Numbered from the stretch's first letter, positions 1-11,431 are shown. The stretch: 11,431 bases of DNA from a virus (IMGVR_UViG_2651869755_000021), one strand, 5' to 3'. The notes: generated from the sequence alone by a model not told the origin. Translations and numbers: made by a program.

Positions 1-159
1 AACGCCATTCATGGCCATATCAATGATTTTCTGGTGCGTACCGGGTTGAGAAGCGGTGTAAGTGAACTGCAGTTGCCATGTTTTACGGCAGTGAGAGCAG
101 AGATAGCGCTGATGTCCGGCAGTGCTTTTGCCGTTACGCACCACCCCGTCAGTAGCTGA
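1..159 (+). CDS. Possible 3' end of an upstream ORF (partial, unknown function)
   Basis: Frame 1 is open from the window edge to a TGA at 157-159 (52 codons). No recognisable motifs. A competing minus-strand ORF (9-221) has a GTG start and no SD. Could equally be non-coding. Confidence 0.25.
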
Positions 160-3019: not shown

Positions 3020-3038
3020 CCCCAGCTACGTGCTGGGG
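3020..3038 (+). promoter_or_regulatory. Perfect 7-bp stem / 5-nt loop hairpin (CCCCAGC-tacgt-GCTGGGG) just after the SSB-like gene stop
   Basis: Exact inverted repeat 3020-3026 / 3032-3038. No downstream U-run, so not a classical intrinsic terminator; possibly an RNA processing, stability or translational-control element overlapping the candidate starts at 3030 and 3045. Confidence 0.35.
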
Positions 3039-3059
3039 TATCTCATGAGGGAAAGAATA

Positions 3060-3707
3060 ATGTCACAGCCCGTATTAACTAATCACCTTAAAACTCAAAT
3101 CATCAATAACGCACTTGAGAAAGCGGGTATCCCCAAACGTAAATCAGCACTACGAGCTGCTCGTGTTGAATGGGCCGAACGTGTTCGGCTTGCAGCTATC
3201 GGGGGCGTAGAGAAAGAAGCTGAAATATTAAAAATATTAAAAATTATAAAAAAAATAGAAACACTGGTATCAAAATTACCCGAAGCATTAAAAACCGCCA
3301 ATAATATTATCAGGAAAGAGTGTTACATGTGTCTGAATCTGGCAGGTTCTCGGGTTACCGTCTATTTCAACGGTAACTATCGAGGATATGAATCAGGGTC
3401 ACCAGACCATATTCACAAAATCGCGCCGGGGGAATTTACCCTTCTGGCAAATGACCCTCTAGTTACAGAGTTTTACGGGTTTGATGCACTTTATGAGCAG
3501 ATACAGAGCGATGAGTCAGACATTCGACAGAATGTCAGCGCTGCACTCAGTAAAGTGCGCACAGTTAAGCGCCTGCTGGAAGAGTGGCCTGAAGCTAAAG
3601 AACTTCTGCCAGCCGATGCACCATCTGCTCCGCTTCCGCCAGCTATACGACGCGAAACTCTCAACGAAATGATCGGCCTCCCTTCTGACGAAGGGGTAGA
3701 TGCTTAA
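3060..3707 (+). CDS. Hypothetical protein with AT-rich Ile/Lys-rich repeat segment
   Basis: ORF is open from GTG 3030; in-frame ATGs at 3045 and 3060. ATG 3060 has GAGGG 8 nt upstream (preferred); 3030 and 3045 lie in or beside a hairpin. No recognised domain. Contains a 9-nt tandem repeat and an internal SD plus in-frame ATG at 3327. Confidence 0.6.
   Translation: MSQPVLTNHLKTQIINNALEKAGIPKRKSALRAARVEWAERVRLAAIGGVEKEAEILKILKIIKKIETLVSKLPEALKTANNIIRKECYMCLNLAGSRVTVYFNGNYRGYESGSPDHIHKIAPGEFTLLANDPLVTEFYGFDALYEQIQSDESDIRQNVSAALSKVRTVKRLLEEWPEAKELLPADAPSAPLPPAIRRETLNEMIGLPSDEGVDA
3225..3251 (+). repeat. Intragenic tandem 9-nt repeat (ATATTAAAA x2, then ATTATAAAA) followed by an A8 tract at 3248-3255
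   Basis: Read directly: atattaaaa/atattaaaa/attataaaa encoding ILK-ILK-IIK; strongly AT-rich compared with the rest of the gene. Confidence 0.8.
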
Positions 3708-4100: not shown

Positions 4101-6164
4101 ATGTCCAATATACTATGGGGTGACCTAGAAACCTATTGCGAAATCCCTATTACGAACGGTACCCATGCGTATGCCGAAGGCGTTGAAGTGATGCTGTTCG
4201 CATGGGCTATCAACGACGGGCCCATAAACGTGTGGGATATCACTGCCGGTGGTGGTATTCCACACGGCTTATACGAAGCAATCGCAGACCCTGAAACCCA
4301 GCTTTATTTCCATAACTCTCACTTCGACCGCACCGTCCTGCGTTATGCAATGCCGCGCCTGGCACCGCCAGTCGAACGTTGGCGCGACACAATGGTGCAG
4401 GCGCTGGCGCACGGTCTCCCGGGGTCTCTGGGGGAACTCTGCGAAGTACTAGGCGTCCCGCAAGACAAAGCGAAGGACAAAGAAGGTAAAGCGCTGATCC
4501 AGCTGTTCTGTAAGCCACGCCCGAAAAACAGCAAACTGCGCCGGGCCACCAGCAAAACTCACCCGGAAGAATGGCGGCGCTTTGTTGCTTACGCCGGACT
4601 GGATATCGAGGCAATGCGCGAAGTCTATAAACGTCTGCCGAAGTGGAATTATCAGGGGACAGAACTGGCGCTCTGGCATCGTGATCAGCAGATCAACGAC
4701 CGGGGCGTCTGCATGGACGTGGAACTCGCACGCGCTGCGATCGACGCGGTAGACCAGGAACAAAAGCGCCTGGCAAAGCGTACACAGGAAATGACTGATG
4801 GCGAAGTGCAGGCAGCCACACAACGAGACGCGTTGATTAAGCACATTGTTGAATCCTACGGTGTGGAGCTACCAGACATGCAACGCAGTACTCTGGAACG
4901 TCGTATTGCCGACCCCGATTTACCATCTGCCGTGAAAGAACTGCTGGCTATCCGCCTGCAGGCCAGTACTACCAGCACCAGTAAATACAAGGCACTGATG
5001 AAAGGCGTAAGCCACGACGGGCGCTTACGCGGTACGCTACAGTTCTGCGGGGCGTCACGTACCGGTCGTTGGGCCGGACGGCTATTCCAGCCCCAGAACC
5101 TTCCCCGCCCTTCACTAAAACAGGAACAAATAGACGAAGGCATCGAAGCACTGAAAGCCGGATGTGCAGACCTGCTGTTTGACAATATCATGGAACTAAC
5201 CAGTTCAGCGTTACGTGGCTGCATTATCGCGCCAACAGGCAAAAAGCTGGTGGTAAGTGACTTGTCGAACATTGAAGGCCGTATGCTGGCATGGCTGGCG
5301 GGAGAAGAATGGAAACTGAATGCATTCAGAGAGTACGACGCCGGAACGGGTCCGGACTTATATAAACTGGCGTATGCAAAAGCTTTCGATATTGCACCAG
5401 ATGATGTTGATAAACACATGCGTCAGATCGGTAAAGTCATGGAGCTCGGTCTGGGTTATGGTGGTGGTGTATCGGCTTTCATCACTTTTGCGCTGGTTTA
5501 CGGTCTCGATCTCGACGAGCTGGCGAACGCCGCACTGCCAAACATTCCCCGCGATGTTATCCGCGAGGCGAAAAGCTGGTACGACGAATCGGTTAAACGC
5601 AAGTCAACCTACGGGCTTTCTGAACGGGTATTTATCGCCTGCGACTCACTTAAACGTCTCTGGCGCAGGGCGCACCCGGCGACCTGCGATTTCTGGTACG
5701 AACTGGAGCGCACCGTCCGCACTGCAATCGCCACACCGCAAAAAACATTGTATTGCGGTTATCTTAAAATCCGCCGCGATGGCGCGTGGCTGCGCATACA
5801 GCTACCATCCGGACGCGCTGTATGCTACCCGTCTCCGGTTATCGAACAAGGGAATATCACCTACATGGGTGTTAACTCTTATTCGCGTAAATGGCAACGA
5901 CTCAAAACCTACGGCGGAAAGCTGGTGGAGAACGTCACCCAGGCGGCCGCCCGCGACGTTCTGGCCGGAAACATACCGCTTATCGAAGATGCCGGTTACA
6001 GCATTGTGCTGACGGTACACGACGAGGTGATCACCGAATCACCTGACACAGAAGATTTCAACGATAAAGCGCTTTCCGCGCTTCTCTCCACTAACCCCGA
6101 ATGGGCGCCCGATATCCCACTGAACGCTGGCGGTTTTGAGGCGTACCACTACCGTAAGGATTAA
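4101..6164 (+). CDS. Family A DNA polymerase (PolA-like) with 3'-5' exonuclease domain
   Basis: Exo I 'GDLET', Exo II '[10 protein letters not shown]', Exo III '[13 protein letters not shown]'; pol motif A '[15 protein letters not shown]', motif B '[16 protein letters not shown]', motif C 'VHDEVITE'. ATG 4101 with AAGG 8 nt upstream. Confidence 0.9.
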
Positions 6165-6169
6165 CTCCT

Positions 6170-6385
6170 ATGTCATTTAAATACCGGGATAATCCACTTT
6201 ATTACAGGGCTGCAAGGGAGGCTTTGCGACTTGAACAATCCGGCGAATATGACCGGGCAGCGAAGGTCTGGGCAAAAGCCAACCGCGAATCACATCACGA
6301 ACTGAATCAGGAATGGAGTGAACGCAGATCTGATTTTTGCCTGATGCAGAATATGCGTGAAAAGCGTAAGGCGGTCGAAGAATGA
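6170..6385 (+). CDS. Small hypothetical protein (71 aa)
   Basis: ATG 6170 six nt after the polymerase stop, AAGGA upstream; its stop overlaps the next start (ATGA at 6382-6385), suggesting translational coupling. No family recognised. Confidence 0.5.
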   Translation: MSFKYRDNPLYYRAAREALRLEQSGEYDRAAKVWAKANRESHHELNQEWSERRSDFCLMQNMREKRKAVEE

Positions 6386-6681
6386 TCGTTTACGTTGCCG
6401 GGCCGATGAGCGGTTACGAGCAATTTAACCGCCCGGCCTTTCATTCCGCAGCAAAGAGGCTAACGGACAAGGGATATGTTGTGCTTAACCCCGCAACTTT
6501 ACCCGATGGTTTGACACAGGCTCAGTACATGGACATCTGCCTCGCAATGCTTCGCTGTGCCGATACGATTTATATGCTCAAAGAGTGGGAGTACTCTGCC
6601 GGCGCACGTGCAGAAAACGCGTTGGCAGAGAAACTGGAATTGAATGTGCTTTTTGAAGAGTGGGATTCAGATGGCCTATGA
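6382..6681 (+). CDS. DUF4406 family protein (nucleoside 2-deoxyribosyltransferase-like fold)
   Basis: 99 aa; 'MIVYVAGPMSG...FN.PAF..AA..L...G..V.NPA...IYML..WE.S.GA..E...A..L' matches the DUF4406 pattern as I recall it; overlapping start/stop with the upstream gene. Confidence 0.7.
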   Translation: MIVYVAGPMSGYEQFNRPAFHSAAKRLTDKGYVVLNPATLPDGLTQAQYMDICLAMLRCADTIYMLKEWEYSAGARAENALAEKLELNVLFEEWDSDGL

Positions 6682-6952
6682 ACGTGAAAACCTAATCGAG
6701 AAGCATCTCGTCGCCGAAGTGAAAAAGGCTGGTGGGGTCGCCTTTAAGTTCATATCACCTGGTCGCCGCTCGGTACCAGATCGCATTGTTCTGCTACCCG
6801 GCGGCCGTCTCGTTTTCGTTGAATGTAAATCTCCCGGCAAGCCACCACGGCCTGACCAGTTGCGCGAGCATGAACGTCTGCGAAAGCTGGGCTTTACCGT
6901 GGTGGTGCTGGATAGCAAAGAGCTTACTGAAGTATTACCGCGAGCTCCCTAA
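6671..6952 (+). CDS. VRR-NUC domain nuclease (PD-(D/E)XK fold)
   Basis: 'VPDRIVLLPGGRLVFVECKSPGKPPRPDQLREHERL..GFTVVVLDS' carries the VRR-NUC D...E-x-K and Q signature. Start ambiguous: ATG 6671 (11-nt overlap with upstream gene, GGGA 5 nt upstream) or ATG 6644 (38-nt overlap). Confidence 0.75.
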   Translation: MAYERENLIEKHLVAEVKKAGGVAFKFISPGRRSVPDRIVLLPGGRLVFVECKSPGKPPRPDQLREHERLRKLGFTVVVLDSKELTEVLPRAP

Positions 6953-7867
6953 CTGAGTTTTTCGAAAGTTATCAGCGATTCTTGCTGCCTCAGAGCGCCC
7001 ACCAGGCAATAAACCAGCTTTACCAAGAATGTAATTTGGGAATTTAGTAGGTAGGTACTCATGACGGAACCAACGACGAAATTCTGGTAAAGCGTCATTG
7101 GGGTATGCCTGAATCATCTGTGGGTTCGAAGCTGCTTGGTTAAAATCATCCGGATAATGGTGCGCACACTTTACACGTTCTCCAAATTTTTCAGACAACC
7201 CTCTAGCGCTCCAATGTTTCGCCCAGCAGGAACCTACACTGATATCAGGTACCGTATACATATTAACTACGAGACCCGCGGTAATCAAATCAACCATCAA
7301 ACCTGCAATTTCATTAAAAACAATAAAATACCCATCCGGTACAGCTCCCGTACTTTGAATAAGAGAGACCCGGTCATGATAGTGGCGCCATGGATCTTCT
7401 GGCTGGTAATGTAACGCACCATAAATATAATCGCGGAGACCAACACGTGCTAGTTCACGATAGTATTGCTGAGCGGTCGCATTCGACGCTGTTTGTGATT
7501 CAAATGCGTAAAACTCCAGCAGTGCCATACAGACAATATCTGGAAACGCATAATGGACAGACCCATTACGCATAATCGGTATAAATAGTACTGGTTCACG
7601 GTAACCAGCCTGCTGCAGATAGGTACTTATAAACTCCATTCGCCCACGGGTGAATACGCCACTTGCAAAACATTGTGCGTATTCCGTTGCAATATCTGCA
7701 ATATTTGTTCGATTTACACCGCAAATTCTCGCCAAACCATTCTGAGTAAGGTACGGAATTCCGTTCTCCAAAACGCCCATTTCGATATCATTAAAAACCC
7801 CTTCCTGCTTGACACCAAGATCTAAGACCGCGCGGGGTGTGGGCTGAGGCTGACTCTGTGCATTCAT
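6935..7867 (-). CDS. Hypothetical protein (310 aa), opposite-strand accessory gene inside the replication module
   Basis: ATG at 7867 with AGGAA about 9 nt upstream on the minus strand; no comparable plus-strand ORF across the 918 bp beyond the VRR-NUC stop (6953-7870); visibly lower GC than its neighbours; 3' end overlaps the VRR-NUC 3' end by 18 nt (convergent). N-terminal segment 'IPYLTQNGLARICGVNRTNIADIA' may be a DNA-binding (HTH-like) region; no catalytic motif recognised. Confidence 0.7.
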   Translation of the reverse strand: MNAQSQPQPTPRAVLDLGVKQEGVFNDIEMGVLENGIPYLTQNGLARICGVNRTNIADIATEYAQCFASGVFTRGRMEFISTYLQQAGYREPVLFIPIMRNGSVHYAFPDIVCMALLEFYAFESQTASNATAQQYYRELARVGLRDYIYGALHYQPEDPWRHYHDRVSLIQSTGAVPDGYFIVFNEIAGLMVDLITAGLVVNMYTVPDISVGSCWAKHWSARGLSEKFGERVKCAHHYPDDFNQAASNPQMIQAYPNDALPEFRRWFRHEYLPTKFPNYILGKAGLLPGGRSEAARIADNFRKTQLGSSR

Positions 7868-7970
7868 CTTATTGATTTCCTTATTTTTATACCCTGAGAG
7901 CTACGTATTAGGACGTAATCTTAATCCCCCTGTTTATACGCCAACTTGCAATTTTTTGCGAGGTACTACT
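7868..7970. promoter_or_regulatory. Divergent intergenic control region between the 310-aa minus-strand gene and the SNF2 helicase gene
   Basis: About 100 bp AT-rich spacer holding the SDs of both divergent genes. Promoter elements are presumed, not individually resolved. Confidence 0.35.
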
Positions 7971-9365
7971 TTGAATACACTTTTCACCCCCCGCCCTTAT
8001 CAAGATCTCATCATCAATCATCAAATCGAAACCCTGCGCGGCAACATCTGGGCAGGGATGGGGATGGGTAAAACCGTAGCGACACTCACCACGCTGGAAG
8101 ATCTTTTCATGGCTGGAGCAGAAACACGCCCCGCGCTGGTCCTCGCGCCGCTACGCGTTGCAGCAAGCACCTGGCCTGATGAAGCTGTTAAATGGGGGCA
8201 TCTGCGTAATATTGAGGTACAGCCGATTATCGGTAACGCCAAAGCGCGCTCTACGGCGCTGGCGAACAGCAACGCGAGCGTGTTCACCATCAACTACGAT
8301 AACCTTGTCTGGCTGGTTGAGGAATTGGGAGAACGATGGCCGTTCGGTACTGTCATTCCAGATGAAAGCACCCGGCTAAAATCCTTCCGGCTACGAGGTG
8401 GTGGTAAGCGCGCTGCGGCACTAGGCAAAGTGGCGCATAAGTATGTCCGGCGCTGGATAAATCTCACCGGTACGCCAGCACCGAACGGCCTGGTAGATTT
8501 GTGGGGACAATCGTGGTTTGTGGACCAAGGGCAACGTCTCGGGCGCACTTACGGCGCGTTTACCTCACGCTGGTTCAACTCAATACAGTTTCCGGGGCAG
8601 AGCTGGACCAAACTGGAGCCGTTTGCTCACTCACAGGGTGAAATACAGCGAGCGTTAGCCGATGTGACTCTCTCGCTGGATGCGGCCGACTGGTTCGATA
8701 TCAAAGACCCTATCCATAACGTAATCCACGTGGATATGCCGCCGAAGGCCCGTCAGCAGTATCGTGAAATGGAAAAAGAAATGTTCCTCGAGCTGAATGG
8801 CGAAGGCATCGAAGCACCGAACGCCGCGGCAAAGACACTGAAGTGTCTGCAAATCGCCAGTGGCGCAGTATACACAGACGACACCGGAAGTTGGTCAGAA
8901 CTGCATGACATCAAACTGCAGGCGCTGGACAGCATACTGACCGAAGCAGCTGGCGCACCTGTGCTGGTTGCTTATCACTGGAAACACGATCTTGAACGCT
9001 TGCTTAAAGCATTCCCTCGCGGTCGTCACCTCGACCAGGATCCAAAGACACTGCGCGACTGGAATTCCGGAAAGATTCCTGTTCTCTTTGCACACCCAGC
9101 CAGCGCGGGCCACGGCCTGAACATGCAGGACGGCGGAAATATACTGGTATTTTTCTCACACTGGTGGGACCTGGAGCAATATCAGCAAATTATTGAACGT
9201 ATCGGCCCCACCAGGCAGATACAGGCCGGACACAATCGTCCGGTATTTATTCACCACATTATTGCTGCCGACACTATGGACGAAATGGTGATGGAGCGGC
9301 GCAACTCAAAACGAACAGTGCAGGACATCCTGCTCGATGCCATGAAAAAGAGAGGTATAGCATGA
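7971..9365 (+). CDS. SNF2/DEAD-like family helicase (phage replication helicase)
   Basis: 'RPYQ' then motif I 'GMGMGKT', motif II 'IPDESTRLK', motif III 'LTGTPAPNGL', C-terminal 'HPASAGHGLNMQ' and 'QQIIERIGPTRQ'. Proposed TTG start at 7971 with GAGGT 6 nt upstream; the ORF is open from TTG 7872, but that would begin at the neighbouring gene's start. Confidence 0.8.
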   Translation: MNTLFTPRPYQDLIINHQIETLRGNIWAGMGMGKTVATLTTLEDLFMAGAETRPALVLAPLRVAASTWPDEAVKWGHLRNIEVQPIIGNAKARSTALANSNASVFTINYDNLVWLVEELGERWPFGTVIPDESTRLKSFRLRGGGKRAAALGKVAHKYVRRWINLTGTPAPNGLVDLWGQSWFVDQGQRLGRTYGAFTSRWFNSIQFPGQSWTKLEPFAHSQGEIQRALADVTLSLDAADWFDIKDPIHNVIHVDMPPKARQQYREMEKEMFLELNGEGIEAPNAAAKTLKCLQIASGAVYTDDTGSWSELHDIKLQALDSILTEAAGAPVLVAYHWKHDLERLLKAFPRGRHLDQDPKTLRDWNSGKIPVLFAHPASAGHGLNMQDGGNILVFFSHWWDLEQYQQIIERIGPTRQIQAGHNRPVFIHHIIAADTMDEMVMERRNSKRTVQDILLDAMKKRGIA

Positions 9366-9562
9366 GCGAGAAACCCAACGATTTACTCACCCCGGATGAA
9401 GTATGCCAAAAGTTAGGCATTACACAGAAAACGCTATGTGAGTGGAATATTAAGCATCGTCATCGGGCTATCCTGGCACCAATTCGTTTCAGTGCAAAAG
9501 TAGTTCGTTATGAGCGCCGAAATGTCGACGCTTTTATTCAAAAATGTCGCAGCCAGTATTAA
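9362..9562 (+). CDS. AlpA/Xis-like HTH DNA-binding protein (putative excisionase or transcriptional regulator)
   Basis: 66 aa; 'LLTPDEVCQKLGITQKTLCEW...RYERRNVDAFI' resembles the AlpA/excisionase family; ATG overlaps the helicase stop (ATGA 9362-9365); GAGAGG SD upstream. Confidence 0.75.
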   Translation: MSEKPNDLLTPDEVCQKLGITQKTLCEWNIKHRHRAILAPIRFSAKVVRYERRNVDAFIQKCRSQY

Positions 9563-10956
9563 CCTCGCCGCCGTAGCAATGCCACCTGCGCAAGTATGCT
9601 CCGCTCGTGAGCCTCGAAAGCTTCGCGCTTTAACGCAATCTCTTCCTGTAAAATCTCATCAGAAAAGTCGTAATGTTCTGCCATCGGGTCATCTGACTTG
9701 CTGGAGTGGTGAAGGCAAAGGAGGCTGATTTCCCTTCGGTCTGATCGGGAATAGCCTCTTTCCTTCATCAAGGCAATAACATTGCTCTTAAGGAATTTAC
9801 GGCACATCGTATTAAATGCACCGTCTTTCCCTTTAACAGTCCCATCATGTTTTATTCCTTTTACAGCCCCGTCCGGGCTGTATGTTTTCACCAGCTTATC
9901 CAGTGATCGTTTTGAAAATGGCTGCATTGGATCACGTGGCTGCAAAAATACATAATCCCTGTTGCACTCAGGAACTGAATCACGCCAGGCTTTCTGCTCG
10001 TCGATAATCCGCCGGATCTCAGGCGTTATCGGCAGGCGGAAAGCCTTTTGTGTTTTCATAGCCCCTCGCATGCCGATAACCCCTTCCGGATAAACAATTT
10101 CACCAGCCTCCTCGTGAACGTAGTCCCAGCGCAGGTTATGGACATTAATCGGACGAACGCCAGTGATGATCATGAAGCGAACAGCATTCTTCTGGTGTAC
10201 AGAGGTGCAGGCAGCAACATTGAGCCAGAGTCGGGCGATTGATTCAATATCGGTAAAAAGCCGTGTGGGGGTGGGTTTCTGTACGCGGGAGGAAACATAA
10301 TCATCTGGCAAACTGGCGGCAACATTGCGGCCGTTGCAAAGAGTAGGTGCGCAGAACTTCCAGAACCGACGGAGCTCGGCAAACAACTCTAGGGCGTTAT
10401 TGTTCGAGCGAGTGGCGATCCACTCGTCCAGCACTTCCACCAGCCGACTGTATGTTACGTCGCTGAACACCTCGCGCTCGCCGAACGTTGCTTTAATCCG
10501 GTCGATACGCACCCCGTAGGTTGTGAAACTGTCCGGGCTCAGCTTCTGCCGGGCTACTTTGGCTTTGAGGTCATCCCGGTACATTTCCAGCGCTGCATGT
10601 ACGGACTCTGCCCGCAGTCCACCGTCAGCCATACCTAGTGCTTTTTCGCGCGCCAGCTGGATAGCGAGCTCCGGCCACTCGCCGAGCTTTTTACCTTTGA
10701 GGCCCATCTTTTTTGGAAACTCGGCGTAAAATGTAACCTTACCGGCTTTGCTGAAATCGATACGGAGATAGTTCTCTTTTTCGTATTTGGAACGGCGAGC
10801 CACACCGGAAGCAGCGAGGATGATTTTGGCGGCAGCAACACAGATTTTCATGTGTGCGCTGGTATAGGGGGGTTTACAAGCGTCCCATTTTTCAGATGCG
10901 GCTAAAACATCGTCATTATTGGGGCTATCCGGATTATGTGTTACAGTGCACGGCAT
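9559..10956 (-). CDS. Tyrosine recombinase (phage integrase)
   Basis: Catalytic-core features: 'ITGVRPINV' (Arg box), 'LLCLHHSSKSDDPMAEHYDF' (His and Tyr region). ATG 10956 has AAGGA with a 6-nt spacer; the ORF is open from TTG 10962, and ATG 10851 is another candidate but lacks an SD. Stop overlaps the AlpA-like stop. Confidence 0.8.
   Translation of the reverse strand: MPCTVTHNPDSPNNDDVLAASEKWDACKPPYTSAHMKICVAAAKIILAASGVARRSKYEKENYLRIDFSKAGKVTFYAEFPKKMGLKGKKLGEWPELAIQLAREKALGMADGGLRAESVHAALEMYRDDLKAKVARQKLSPDSFTTYGVRIDRIKATFGEREVFSDVTYSRLVEVLDEWIATRSNNNALELFAELRRFWKFCAPTLCNGRNVAASLPDDYVSSRVQKPTPTRLFTDIESIARLWLNVAACTSVHQKNAVRFMIITGVRPINVHNLRWDYVHEEAGEIVYPEGVIGMRGAMKTQKAFRLPITPEIRRIIDEQKAWRDSVPECNRDYVFLQPRDPMQPFSKRSLDKLVKTYSPDGAVKGIKHDGTVKGKDGAFNTMCRKFLKSNVIALMKERGYSRSDRREISLLCLHHSSKSDDPMAEHYDFSDEILQEEIALKREAFEAHERSILAQVALLRRRG

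Positions 10957-11431
<475 letters not shown>

Follow-up and report, generated by a model that had tools for sequence, protein, structure and literature searches.

The minus-strand gene between the VRR-NUC nuclease and SNF2 helicase genes of the viral sequence IMGVR_UViG_2651869755_000021 (a stretch of 11,431 nucleotides, here termed the window) very probably codes for an abortive-infection protein of the BstA family and forms exchangeable cargo in an APSE/BPP-1-like E. coli prophage that looks intact and is integrated beside yfhL. We put the probability of this reading at roughly 0.88. Comparison of the start regions of bstA genes from diverse phages and prophages further revealed a direct repeat, with a spacing of about 57 bp and arms that co-vary within each locus, straddling the start codon in most loci.

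The properties of BstA have been described by Owen et al. 2021 (PMC8585504). The protein is made constitutively in the lysogen and, upon infection by many unrelated phages, moves to replicating phage DNA; the phage DNA then fails to replicate and the infected cell dies, yielding no progeny, which constitutes abortive infection. Members tested for defence include those of BTP1, E. coli NCTC10963 and K. pneumoniae Kp52.145, and phages sensitive to the BTP1 protein include lambda, phi80, P1 and T7, T4 and T5 being insensitive. The resident prophage is spared through aba, in BTP1 a 63-bp segment of DNA extending from -29 to +34 of bstA, which acts as DNA, needs amplification and is specific for its own BstA; its function depends on a CCCGCC direct repeat at both ends and was abolished by a single substitution in either arm (PMC8585504).

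Identity of the encoded protein

The translated product matched the PADLOC model PDLC02356 (BstA) with E=1.4e-115, residues 12-304 aligning with positions 6-290 of the 292 in the model, and its sole PHROG match, over the full length, was PHROG 6287, "BstA abortive infection system, replication inhibitor" (E=2.9e-105). Interrogation of phage genomes by tblastn retrieved BTP1 BstA at 39.0% identity and 91% query coverage (E=5e-59). Since two other defence-tested homologs are 41.7% and 48.4% identical to BTP1 BstA (PMC8585504), the window protein appears to be about as distant from BTP1 BstA as are functionally validated members of the family. In alignments, every column invariant among nine diverse homologs, and every column invariant among 63, is kept in the window protein. 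A large protein collection contained 807 homologous clusters (90% identity) at E<=1e-5; PF26567 occurs in all 120 of the clusters listed from these 807, and the sources name their proteins "BstA-like C-terminal domain-containing protein". Scans of the window protein with Pfam and NCBIfam returned no match, for Pfam even at E<=10. BTP1 BstA itself likewise lacked a Pfam match at E<=10, and the Pfam set searched was evidently without PF26567, so that the missing match says nothing about novelty.

In RefSeq the product is WP_042043889.1, a "BstA C-terminal domain-containing protein". The 72 BstA homologs tabulated by Owen et al. 2021 (Table S1; PMC8585504) include one from E. coli NCTC9022 (LR134237, 1366652-1367500), and the product of that locus, also WP_042043889.1, shows zero differences from the window protein when the translations are compared. 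Judged by its sequence, the window gene is a known member of the BstA family, and the same protein already stood in the founding paper's table. An earlier note, made from the DNA sequence before these searches, had assigned the gene an unknown, possibly undescribed function; this no longer holds, as a description and tests of the family appeared in 2021 (PMC8585504) and PADLOC, PHROGs and RefSeq all name it. With high confidence we recommend the name bstA for this gene, with the annotation of prophage defence by abortive infection, and removal of the flag of undescribed function.

An AF2 model of the window protein comprises two domains (Table 1), with a pLDDT of 86.4 over its whole length (85.4 for the C-terminal domain), and an N-terminal tail that is variable in the alignment and of low confidence in the model. 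What the earlier note had perceived as a possible HTH-like N-terminal segment corresponds to the KilA-N-like DNA-binding domain described for BstA. The profile and structure searches proposed there had a divided outcome: the profiles gave the full-length BstA matches reported above, and Foldseek comparison of the predicted model with the PDB gave no convincing solved relative (best E = 0.37). A search of PDB sequences with a profile of 63 sequences likewise retrieved no match at E<=1, and in the literature collection searched, no subsequent study of BstA mechanism or structure was found.

The protein might alternatively be a KilA-N/Ant-type regulator, either an antirepressor or Bro-like, that serves the induction or gene control of the prophage itself and not defence. 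We regard this as very improbable. The BstA match is full-length and includes the C-terminal domain that antirepressors lack, and three BstA members of a comparable range of divergence all conferred phage defence when tested. Resemblance to an antirepressor-type protein, which had been named beforehand as an outcome that would count against a defence role, did not appear: no antirepressor (Ant/Bro/Rha) family of PHROG or Pfam was matched, in Pfam even at E<=10.

Gene structure, composition and selection

Coordinates of the features described are compiled in Table 1. As noted earlier from the sequence, the 933-nt open reading frame has its own ATG and Shine-Dalgarno sequence (AAGGAAA), lies in a patch of lower GC content and overlaps the 3' end of the VRR-NUC gene by 18 nt; each of these features was borne out. 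The GC content is 0.443 in the cassette containing bstA, compared with 0.536 and 0.528 in the flanks, and GC3 is 0.37 for the bstA region, compared with 0.58 in the polymerase and helicase genes. Relative to sister alleles (85-91% protein identity), bstA shows dN/dS of 0.03-0.07. These values, and the 807 homologous clusters, identify the ORF as a real gene and not a chance ORF. Because the sister alleles fill the same slot in more diverged prophages, and because dN/dS is so low, bstA is a long-resident, selected gene under strong purifying selection.

Contrary to the earlier note, bstA is not the sole minus-strand ORF in the replication module. RefSeq contains a second, hypothetical gene of 89 aa, situated between Nmad5 and PolA in a segment with GC of ~0.42-0.43; its product had no Pfam or PHROG match, and it may be another small moron.

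Table 1. Features of the window and of alternative cassettes occupying the same slot. Positions are those of the window unless residues or another locus (L002-L005) are indicated; positions such as -35 are relative to the bstA start codon.
Feature	Location	Strand	Description and basis
Hypothetical gene, WP_000490740.1	3775-4044	(-)	89 aa; RefSeq
VRR-NUC/PDDEXK nuclease gene	6671..6952	(+)	Left flank of slot; RefSeq start; Pfam VRR_NUC E=7e-4, PHROG 93 E=3e-32
Exchangeable cargo cassette	6920..7978		Last 11 VRR-NUC codons, bstA, 103-bp upstream region, SNF2 RBS and start codon
bstA/VRR-NUC convergent 3'-end overlap	6935..6952	both	18 nt; coordinates and RefSeq
bstA CDS	6935..7867	(-)	310 aa, ATG start; ORF and translation
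KilA-N-like DNA-binding domain of BstA	residues ~19-150		N-terminal
BstA C-terminal domain	residues ~156-300
Candidate aba	7837..7903	(-)	Position and homology with sister alleles
Candidate downstream arm, AGCCCACA	7838..7845	(-)	+23..+30; 57 bp from upstream arm
bstA Shine-Dalgarno AAGGAAA	7876..7882	(-)	8 nt upstream of ATG; sequence
Candidate upstream arm, AGCTCTCA	7895..7902	(-)	-35..-28
SNF2-family helicase gene	7971..9365	(+)	Right flank of slot; RefSeq TTG start; Pfam SNF2-rel_dom E=1.3e-11, PHROG 62 E=1e-155
Tyrosine integrase	9559-10962	(-)	Prophage end
Host gene yfhL	11171-11431	(+)	Directly after integrase
Cargo class L002	L002 1277-1987		236-aa minus-strand protein, no family match
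Cargo class L003	L003 1268-3214		Cytosine methyltransferase and second BstA allele, 65% identical to window BstA
Cargo class L004	L004 1268-2901		Arc/Arc/Rha-Ant cassette
Cargo class L005	L005 1276-2949		Three minus-strand genes; one matches PADLOC defence candidate PDC-S42, E=6e-40
Further cargo classes			From RefSeq annotation of matches only: DUF6338 protein; Dcm and class I SAM methyltransferase

Prophage context and flanking genes

Positions 6170-9562 of the window are 100% identical in E. coli CAU16175 and EPSSH018. In EPSSH018 the locus lies in a complete-looking prophage, a stretch of ~24 kb integrated beside yfhL, with genes for terminase, head morphogenesis, lysis, Q, Cro-like and CI-like HTH proteins, a DUF5906 primase and an integrase; this identical locus shows the gene to be prophage-encoded, as expected for the BstA family. 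The replication module, in the order DUF2800, Enc34-type SSB, Nmad5, PolA, ANR/PerC-like, DUF4406, VRR-NUC, bstA (on the opposite strand), SNF2, HTH/Xis-like and integrase, resembles those of APSE- and BPP-1-type phages. Since yfhL directly follows the integrase that marks the prophage end, the window spans the attachment junction (~10963-11170).

Two features of this module were observed in passing. In RefSeq, PolA is frameshifted in EPSSH018 (L001 17166-19230), compared with an intact 687-aa ORF in the window (4101-6164), which may mean that the prophage is defective in replication in some hosts. The module contains a nucleotide-modification-associated gene, Nmad5 (3030-3707, plus strand; Pfam E=2.9e-55), and another Nmad5 gene adjoins N in an unrelated lambdoid prophage that carries a BstA-Ec-like allele (L099 898-1521).

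The SNF2 helicase gene most likely starts at the TTG at 7971, the RefSeq start, which has a GAGG Shine-Dalgarno sequence, and not at 7872; a divergent intergenic region of 103 bp (7868-7970) is therefore present upstream of bstA. The ribosome-binding site and TTG start of the helicase gene fall within the exchangeable cassette, so that every cargo cassette supplies its own SNF2 translation start region.

A variable cargo slot between VRR-NUC and SNF2

When the window was compared by blastn with four prophages carrying other cargo, homology broke at 6918-6920 and again at 7979-7981 in all four; the left breakpoint (6919/6920) is 33 nt before the VRR-NUC stop codon and the right lies just inside the SNF2 start. 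The VRR-NUC/SNF2 junction is thus a sharply bounded slot, in which E. coli prophages carry one of seven or more alternative cassettes (examples in Table 1). The earlier note had taken the gene for acquired cargo at a variable VRR-NUC/helicase junction and had proposed comparing related elements for a hotspot; that comparison upheld the view, revealing different cassettes between the same two breakpoints, and the suggestion that the cargo is an anti-phage defence gene gains strong support from the homology to BstA. A query spanning 6170-9562 matched 265 complete E. coli genomes, ~110 of them only by the short conserved N-terminal stretch of bstA; among the ~155 genomes with the replication module, 11 carry the window allele of bstA (at least 80% query coverage).

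Judged by predicted content, defence-type genes are enriched in the slot. No family match was obtained for the 176-aa and 82-aa neighbours of the PDC-S42 candidate in L005, and these two, together with the 236-aa gene of L002, are candidate defence genes in unannotated cassettes. With two BstA alleles, a PADLOC candidate and several unannotated cassettes, the VRR-NUC/SNF2 slot is a place to seek new defence genes.

Arrangement, expression signals and proposed mechanism

Genes for BstA are usually found downstream of the prophage repressor, a strikingly conserved position in which the promoter is probably shared (PMC8585504). This position, frequent and not obligatory, is not the one seen here: some 8 kb separate bstA from the CI-like gene, and it runs antisense to the early replication operon in which it lies, a context that among the loci fetched was confined to the window clade and the bstA2 clade (the second allele of the slot). 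Being neither adjacent to the repressor nor co-oriented with the operon, bstA needs its own promoter, in 7868-7970. A scan of 6500-8100 detected no sigma-70-like promoter, either for bstA or for the divergent SNF2 gene. A conserved TATAAA at 7886-7891 was considered as a -10 element and rejected because it is too close to the Shine-Dalgarno sequence of the mRNA that would use it. Over the same interval no Rho-independent terminator was found after bstA; only weak terminator-like sites occurred, of which the sole one on the minus strand (6710-6697) is itself weak and lies inside VRR-NUC, and the 18-nt overlap was without any terminator-like site.

By homology with the tested BstA proteins, the window protein would be produced in the lysogen. 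Infection by a foreign phage would then direct it to the replicating phage DNA, where replication would be blocked and the cell would die without progeny. On replication of the resident prophage, amplified copies of the cognate aba, which would overlap the 5' end of bstA, would suppress BstA; as a matter of speculation, convergent transcription from the replication operon at induction could also lower bstA expression. From this analogy we infer the lysogenic expression and defence phenotype of the window allele, as well as the position and function of its aba.

A co-varying direct repeat across bstA start codons

The mention of a repeat in Owen et al. 2021 and its supplements pertains to BTP1 only. 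To assemble a comparative set, bstA start regions were gathered from 80 viral contigs, seven genomes and several phages and dereplicated to 45 loci; scanning genome contigs with a single protein yielded seven loci, and the diversity came from an alignment-based scan of viral contigs. A repeat was defined as having one arm upstream of the ATG and the other in the first 70 nt of the coding sequence. The strongest such repeat had a spacing of 56-58 bp in 31 of the 45 loci, and of exactly 57 in 26 of them, as against 9 of 135 control windows placed within the coding sequence in which the spacing was 56-58 bp. Mean identity between the segments -d..-1 and +1..+d correspondingly peaks at d=57, reaching 0.347 compared with 0.22-0.29 elsewhere, and the excess is concentrated at -47..-31 and +11..+27. 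Tandem duplication of a whole 57-bp unit was rejected as a description, identity being raised mainly in the 17-nt block (-47..-31) and not across the unit; for this reason we prefer to describe two arms.

The arms differ between loci, each matching its own partner (examples are CCGGCCACCCATT, CAGCAGGCCGCC, AAAAGAGATCACCCT, AGAGAACG and GCTCCTCA). Scores between arms averaged 7.06 within a locus and 3.76 across loci (Mann-Whitney p=6.5e-20), and scores of at least 8 made up 38% of within-locus and 1.4% of cross-locus comparisons, the loci in both calculations being phylogenetically non-independent. The essential CCCGCC repeat of BTP1 conforms in having a spacing of 56. The codons for the N-terminal tail of BstA contain the downstream arm.

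A co-varying repeat with a spacing of ~57 bp has the appearance that cognate aba elements would be expected to have. In a joint reading, whose chances we consider evenly balanced, an aba architecture would be conserved throughout the family and its arms would set cognate specificity, probably as binding sites of the predicted KilA-N-like domain; the pair in the window allele is unusually degenerate (6/8), so that its own phage may be partly spared in some other way; and the slot would be an exchange site for defence genes. The architecture may consist of two copies of an allele-specific motif of 8-17 nt, about 57 bp apart and flanking a conserved core around the ribosome-binding site, with one arm upstream of that site and the other in the sequence coding for the disordered N-terminal tail. 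The rule of a co-varying repeat at ~57 bp appears to locate the cognate aba in most BstA loci; as aba has been mapped experimentally in BTP1 only, it supplies targets for mutagenesis and DNA-binding assays.

The candidate aba of the window allele

The two arms proposed for the window allele (Table 1) match at 6 of 8 positions, which is not significant alone, and their assignment therefore rests on positional homology. In sister alleles the arms are AGCCCTCA (-35) and AGCCCACA (+23), matched at 7 of 8 positions with a spacing of 57; those of the bstA2 clade, AACCCACA/AACCCGCA, occupy identical positions and are again imperfect (7/8). The window pair occurs identically in three further E. coli copies (L096-L098). 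An alternative pairing with a spacing of 50 is also present, represented by CTCAG at -31 and +20 in the window and by a perfect CAGCCTCAG in one sister allele.

Constraint at the DNA level is also indicated at the 5' end of bstA. Positions -1..-30, directly before the ATG, show 89-100% identity across sister alleles, and identity at third codon positions among these alleles is 0.80 in the first 15 codons, compared with ~0.5 later. In addition, an 18-nt core, ATAAAAATAAGGAAATCA, which contains AAGGAAA, is common to the window allele and to the bstA of 2012C-4431, a gene beside a CI repressor whose product has 34% protein identity to window BstA. A model of aba as a hairpin was dropped, since single-strand folding of the DNA gave z = +2 and 198 of 200 shuffled sequences folded at least as well.

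The imperfect pair could signify a BstA homolog without defence activity or self-immunity, decaying or domesticated, in which aba, for example, was inactivated by having AGCTCTCA in place of AGCCCTCA. The window upstream arm does differ from those of all sister alleles at one position, the kind of single-base change in an arm that eliminates aba function in BTP1, and the scan for promoters and terminators found neither for bstA. Against decay, the ORF is intact and under the strong purifying selection documented above, every invariant residue of the family is kept, and the sister and bstA2 clades, too, have imperfect arms. The upstream arm, moreover, is fixed in all four copies, across two backbone variants with either DUF4406 or DUF7446 beside VRR-NUC, which argues against a recent disabling mutation. 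We consider decay very improbable. Within the joint reading above, the degenerate arm pair and the antisense position in the replication operon suggest that this allele may spare its own phage partly by other means, such as convergent transcription at induction.

Comparison with known systems

The founding member of the family is BstA of the Salmonella prophage BTP1 (st313-td; PMC8585504), with which the window protein shares the two-domain organisation of the family, 39% identity over 91% of its length and the invariant residues. Both are single-gene systems encoded by prophages; both genes have an A-rich core at the ribosome-binding site, AAGGAAA(A)TCA, before the ATG, and both have a short direct repeat, a candidate one in the window allele, spaced ~56-57 bp, across the start codon. 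They differ in setting, BTP1 bstA following cI immediately and in the same orientation whereas the window gene is antisense and distant from the CI-like gene, and in termination, BTP1 bstA having its own Rho-independent terminator whereas the window gene overlaps VRR-NUC and lacks one. The repeat arms are CCCGCC in BTP1 but AGC[T/C]C[T/A]CA, and imperfect, in the window.

BstA-Ec of NCTC10963, and the allele of the same length in 2012C-4431, are likewise BstA proteins of E. coli prophages, with the core ATAAAAATAAGGAAATCA upstream of the ATG. The 2012C-4431 allele has an imperfect repeat (13/17) at the 57-bp spacing proposed for the window allele. The BstA-Ec-like allele, at 34% protein identity to the window protein, belongs instead to a lambdoid prophage, where it follows the gene for a CI repressor of the LexA family; defence by BstA-Ec has been shown by experiment, whereas the window allele is known from sequence.

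The second BstA allele of the slot, WP_001288450.1 (E. coli O103:H2 12009; Table S1 of Owen et al.), occupies the same slot and strand as the window allele at 65% identity, and its repeat arms are also at -35 and +23. It differs in being accompanied by a plus-strand DNA cytosine methyltransferase gene and in the sequence of its arms, AACCCACA/AACCCGCA. Lambda RexAB, like BstA, is a prophage-encoded abortive-infection system expressed from a mosaic cargo slot, for which a means of sparing the resident phage has been proposed, but it has no sequence relationship to BstA, and its two proteins, encoded between cI and N, depolarise the membrane.
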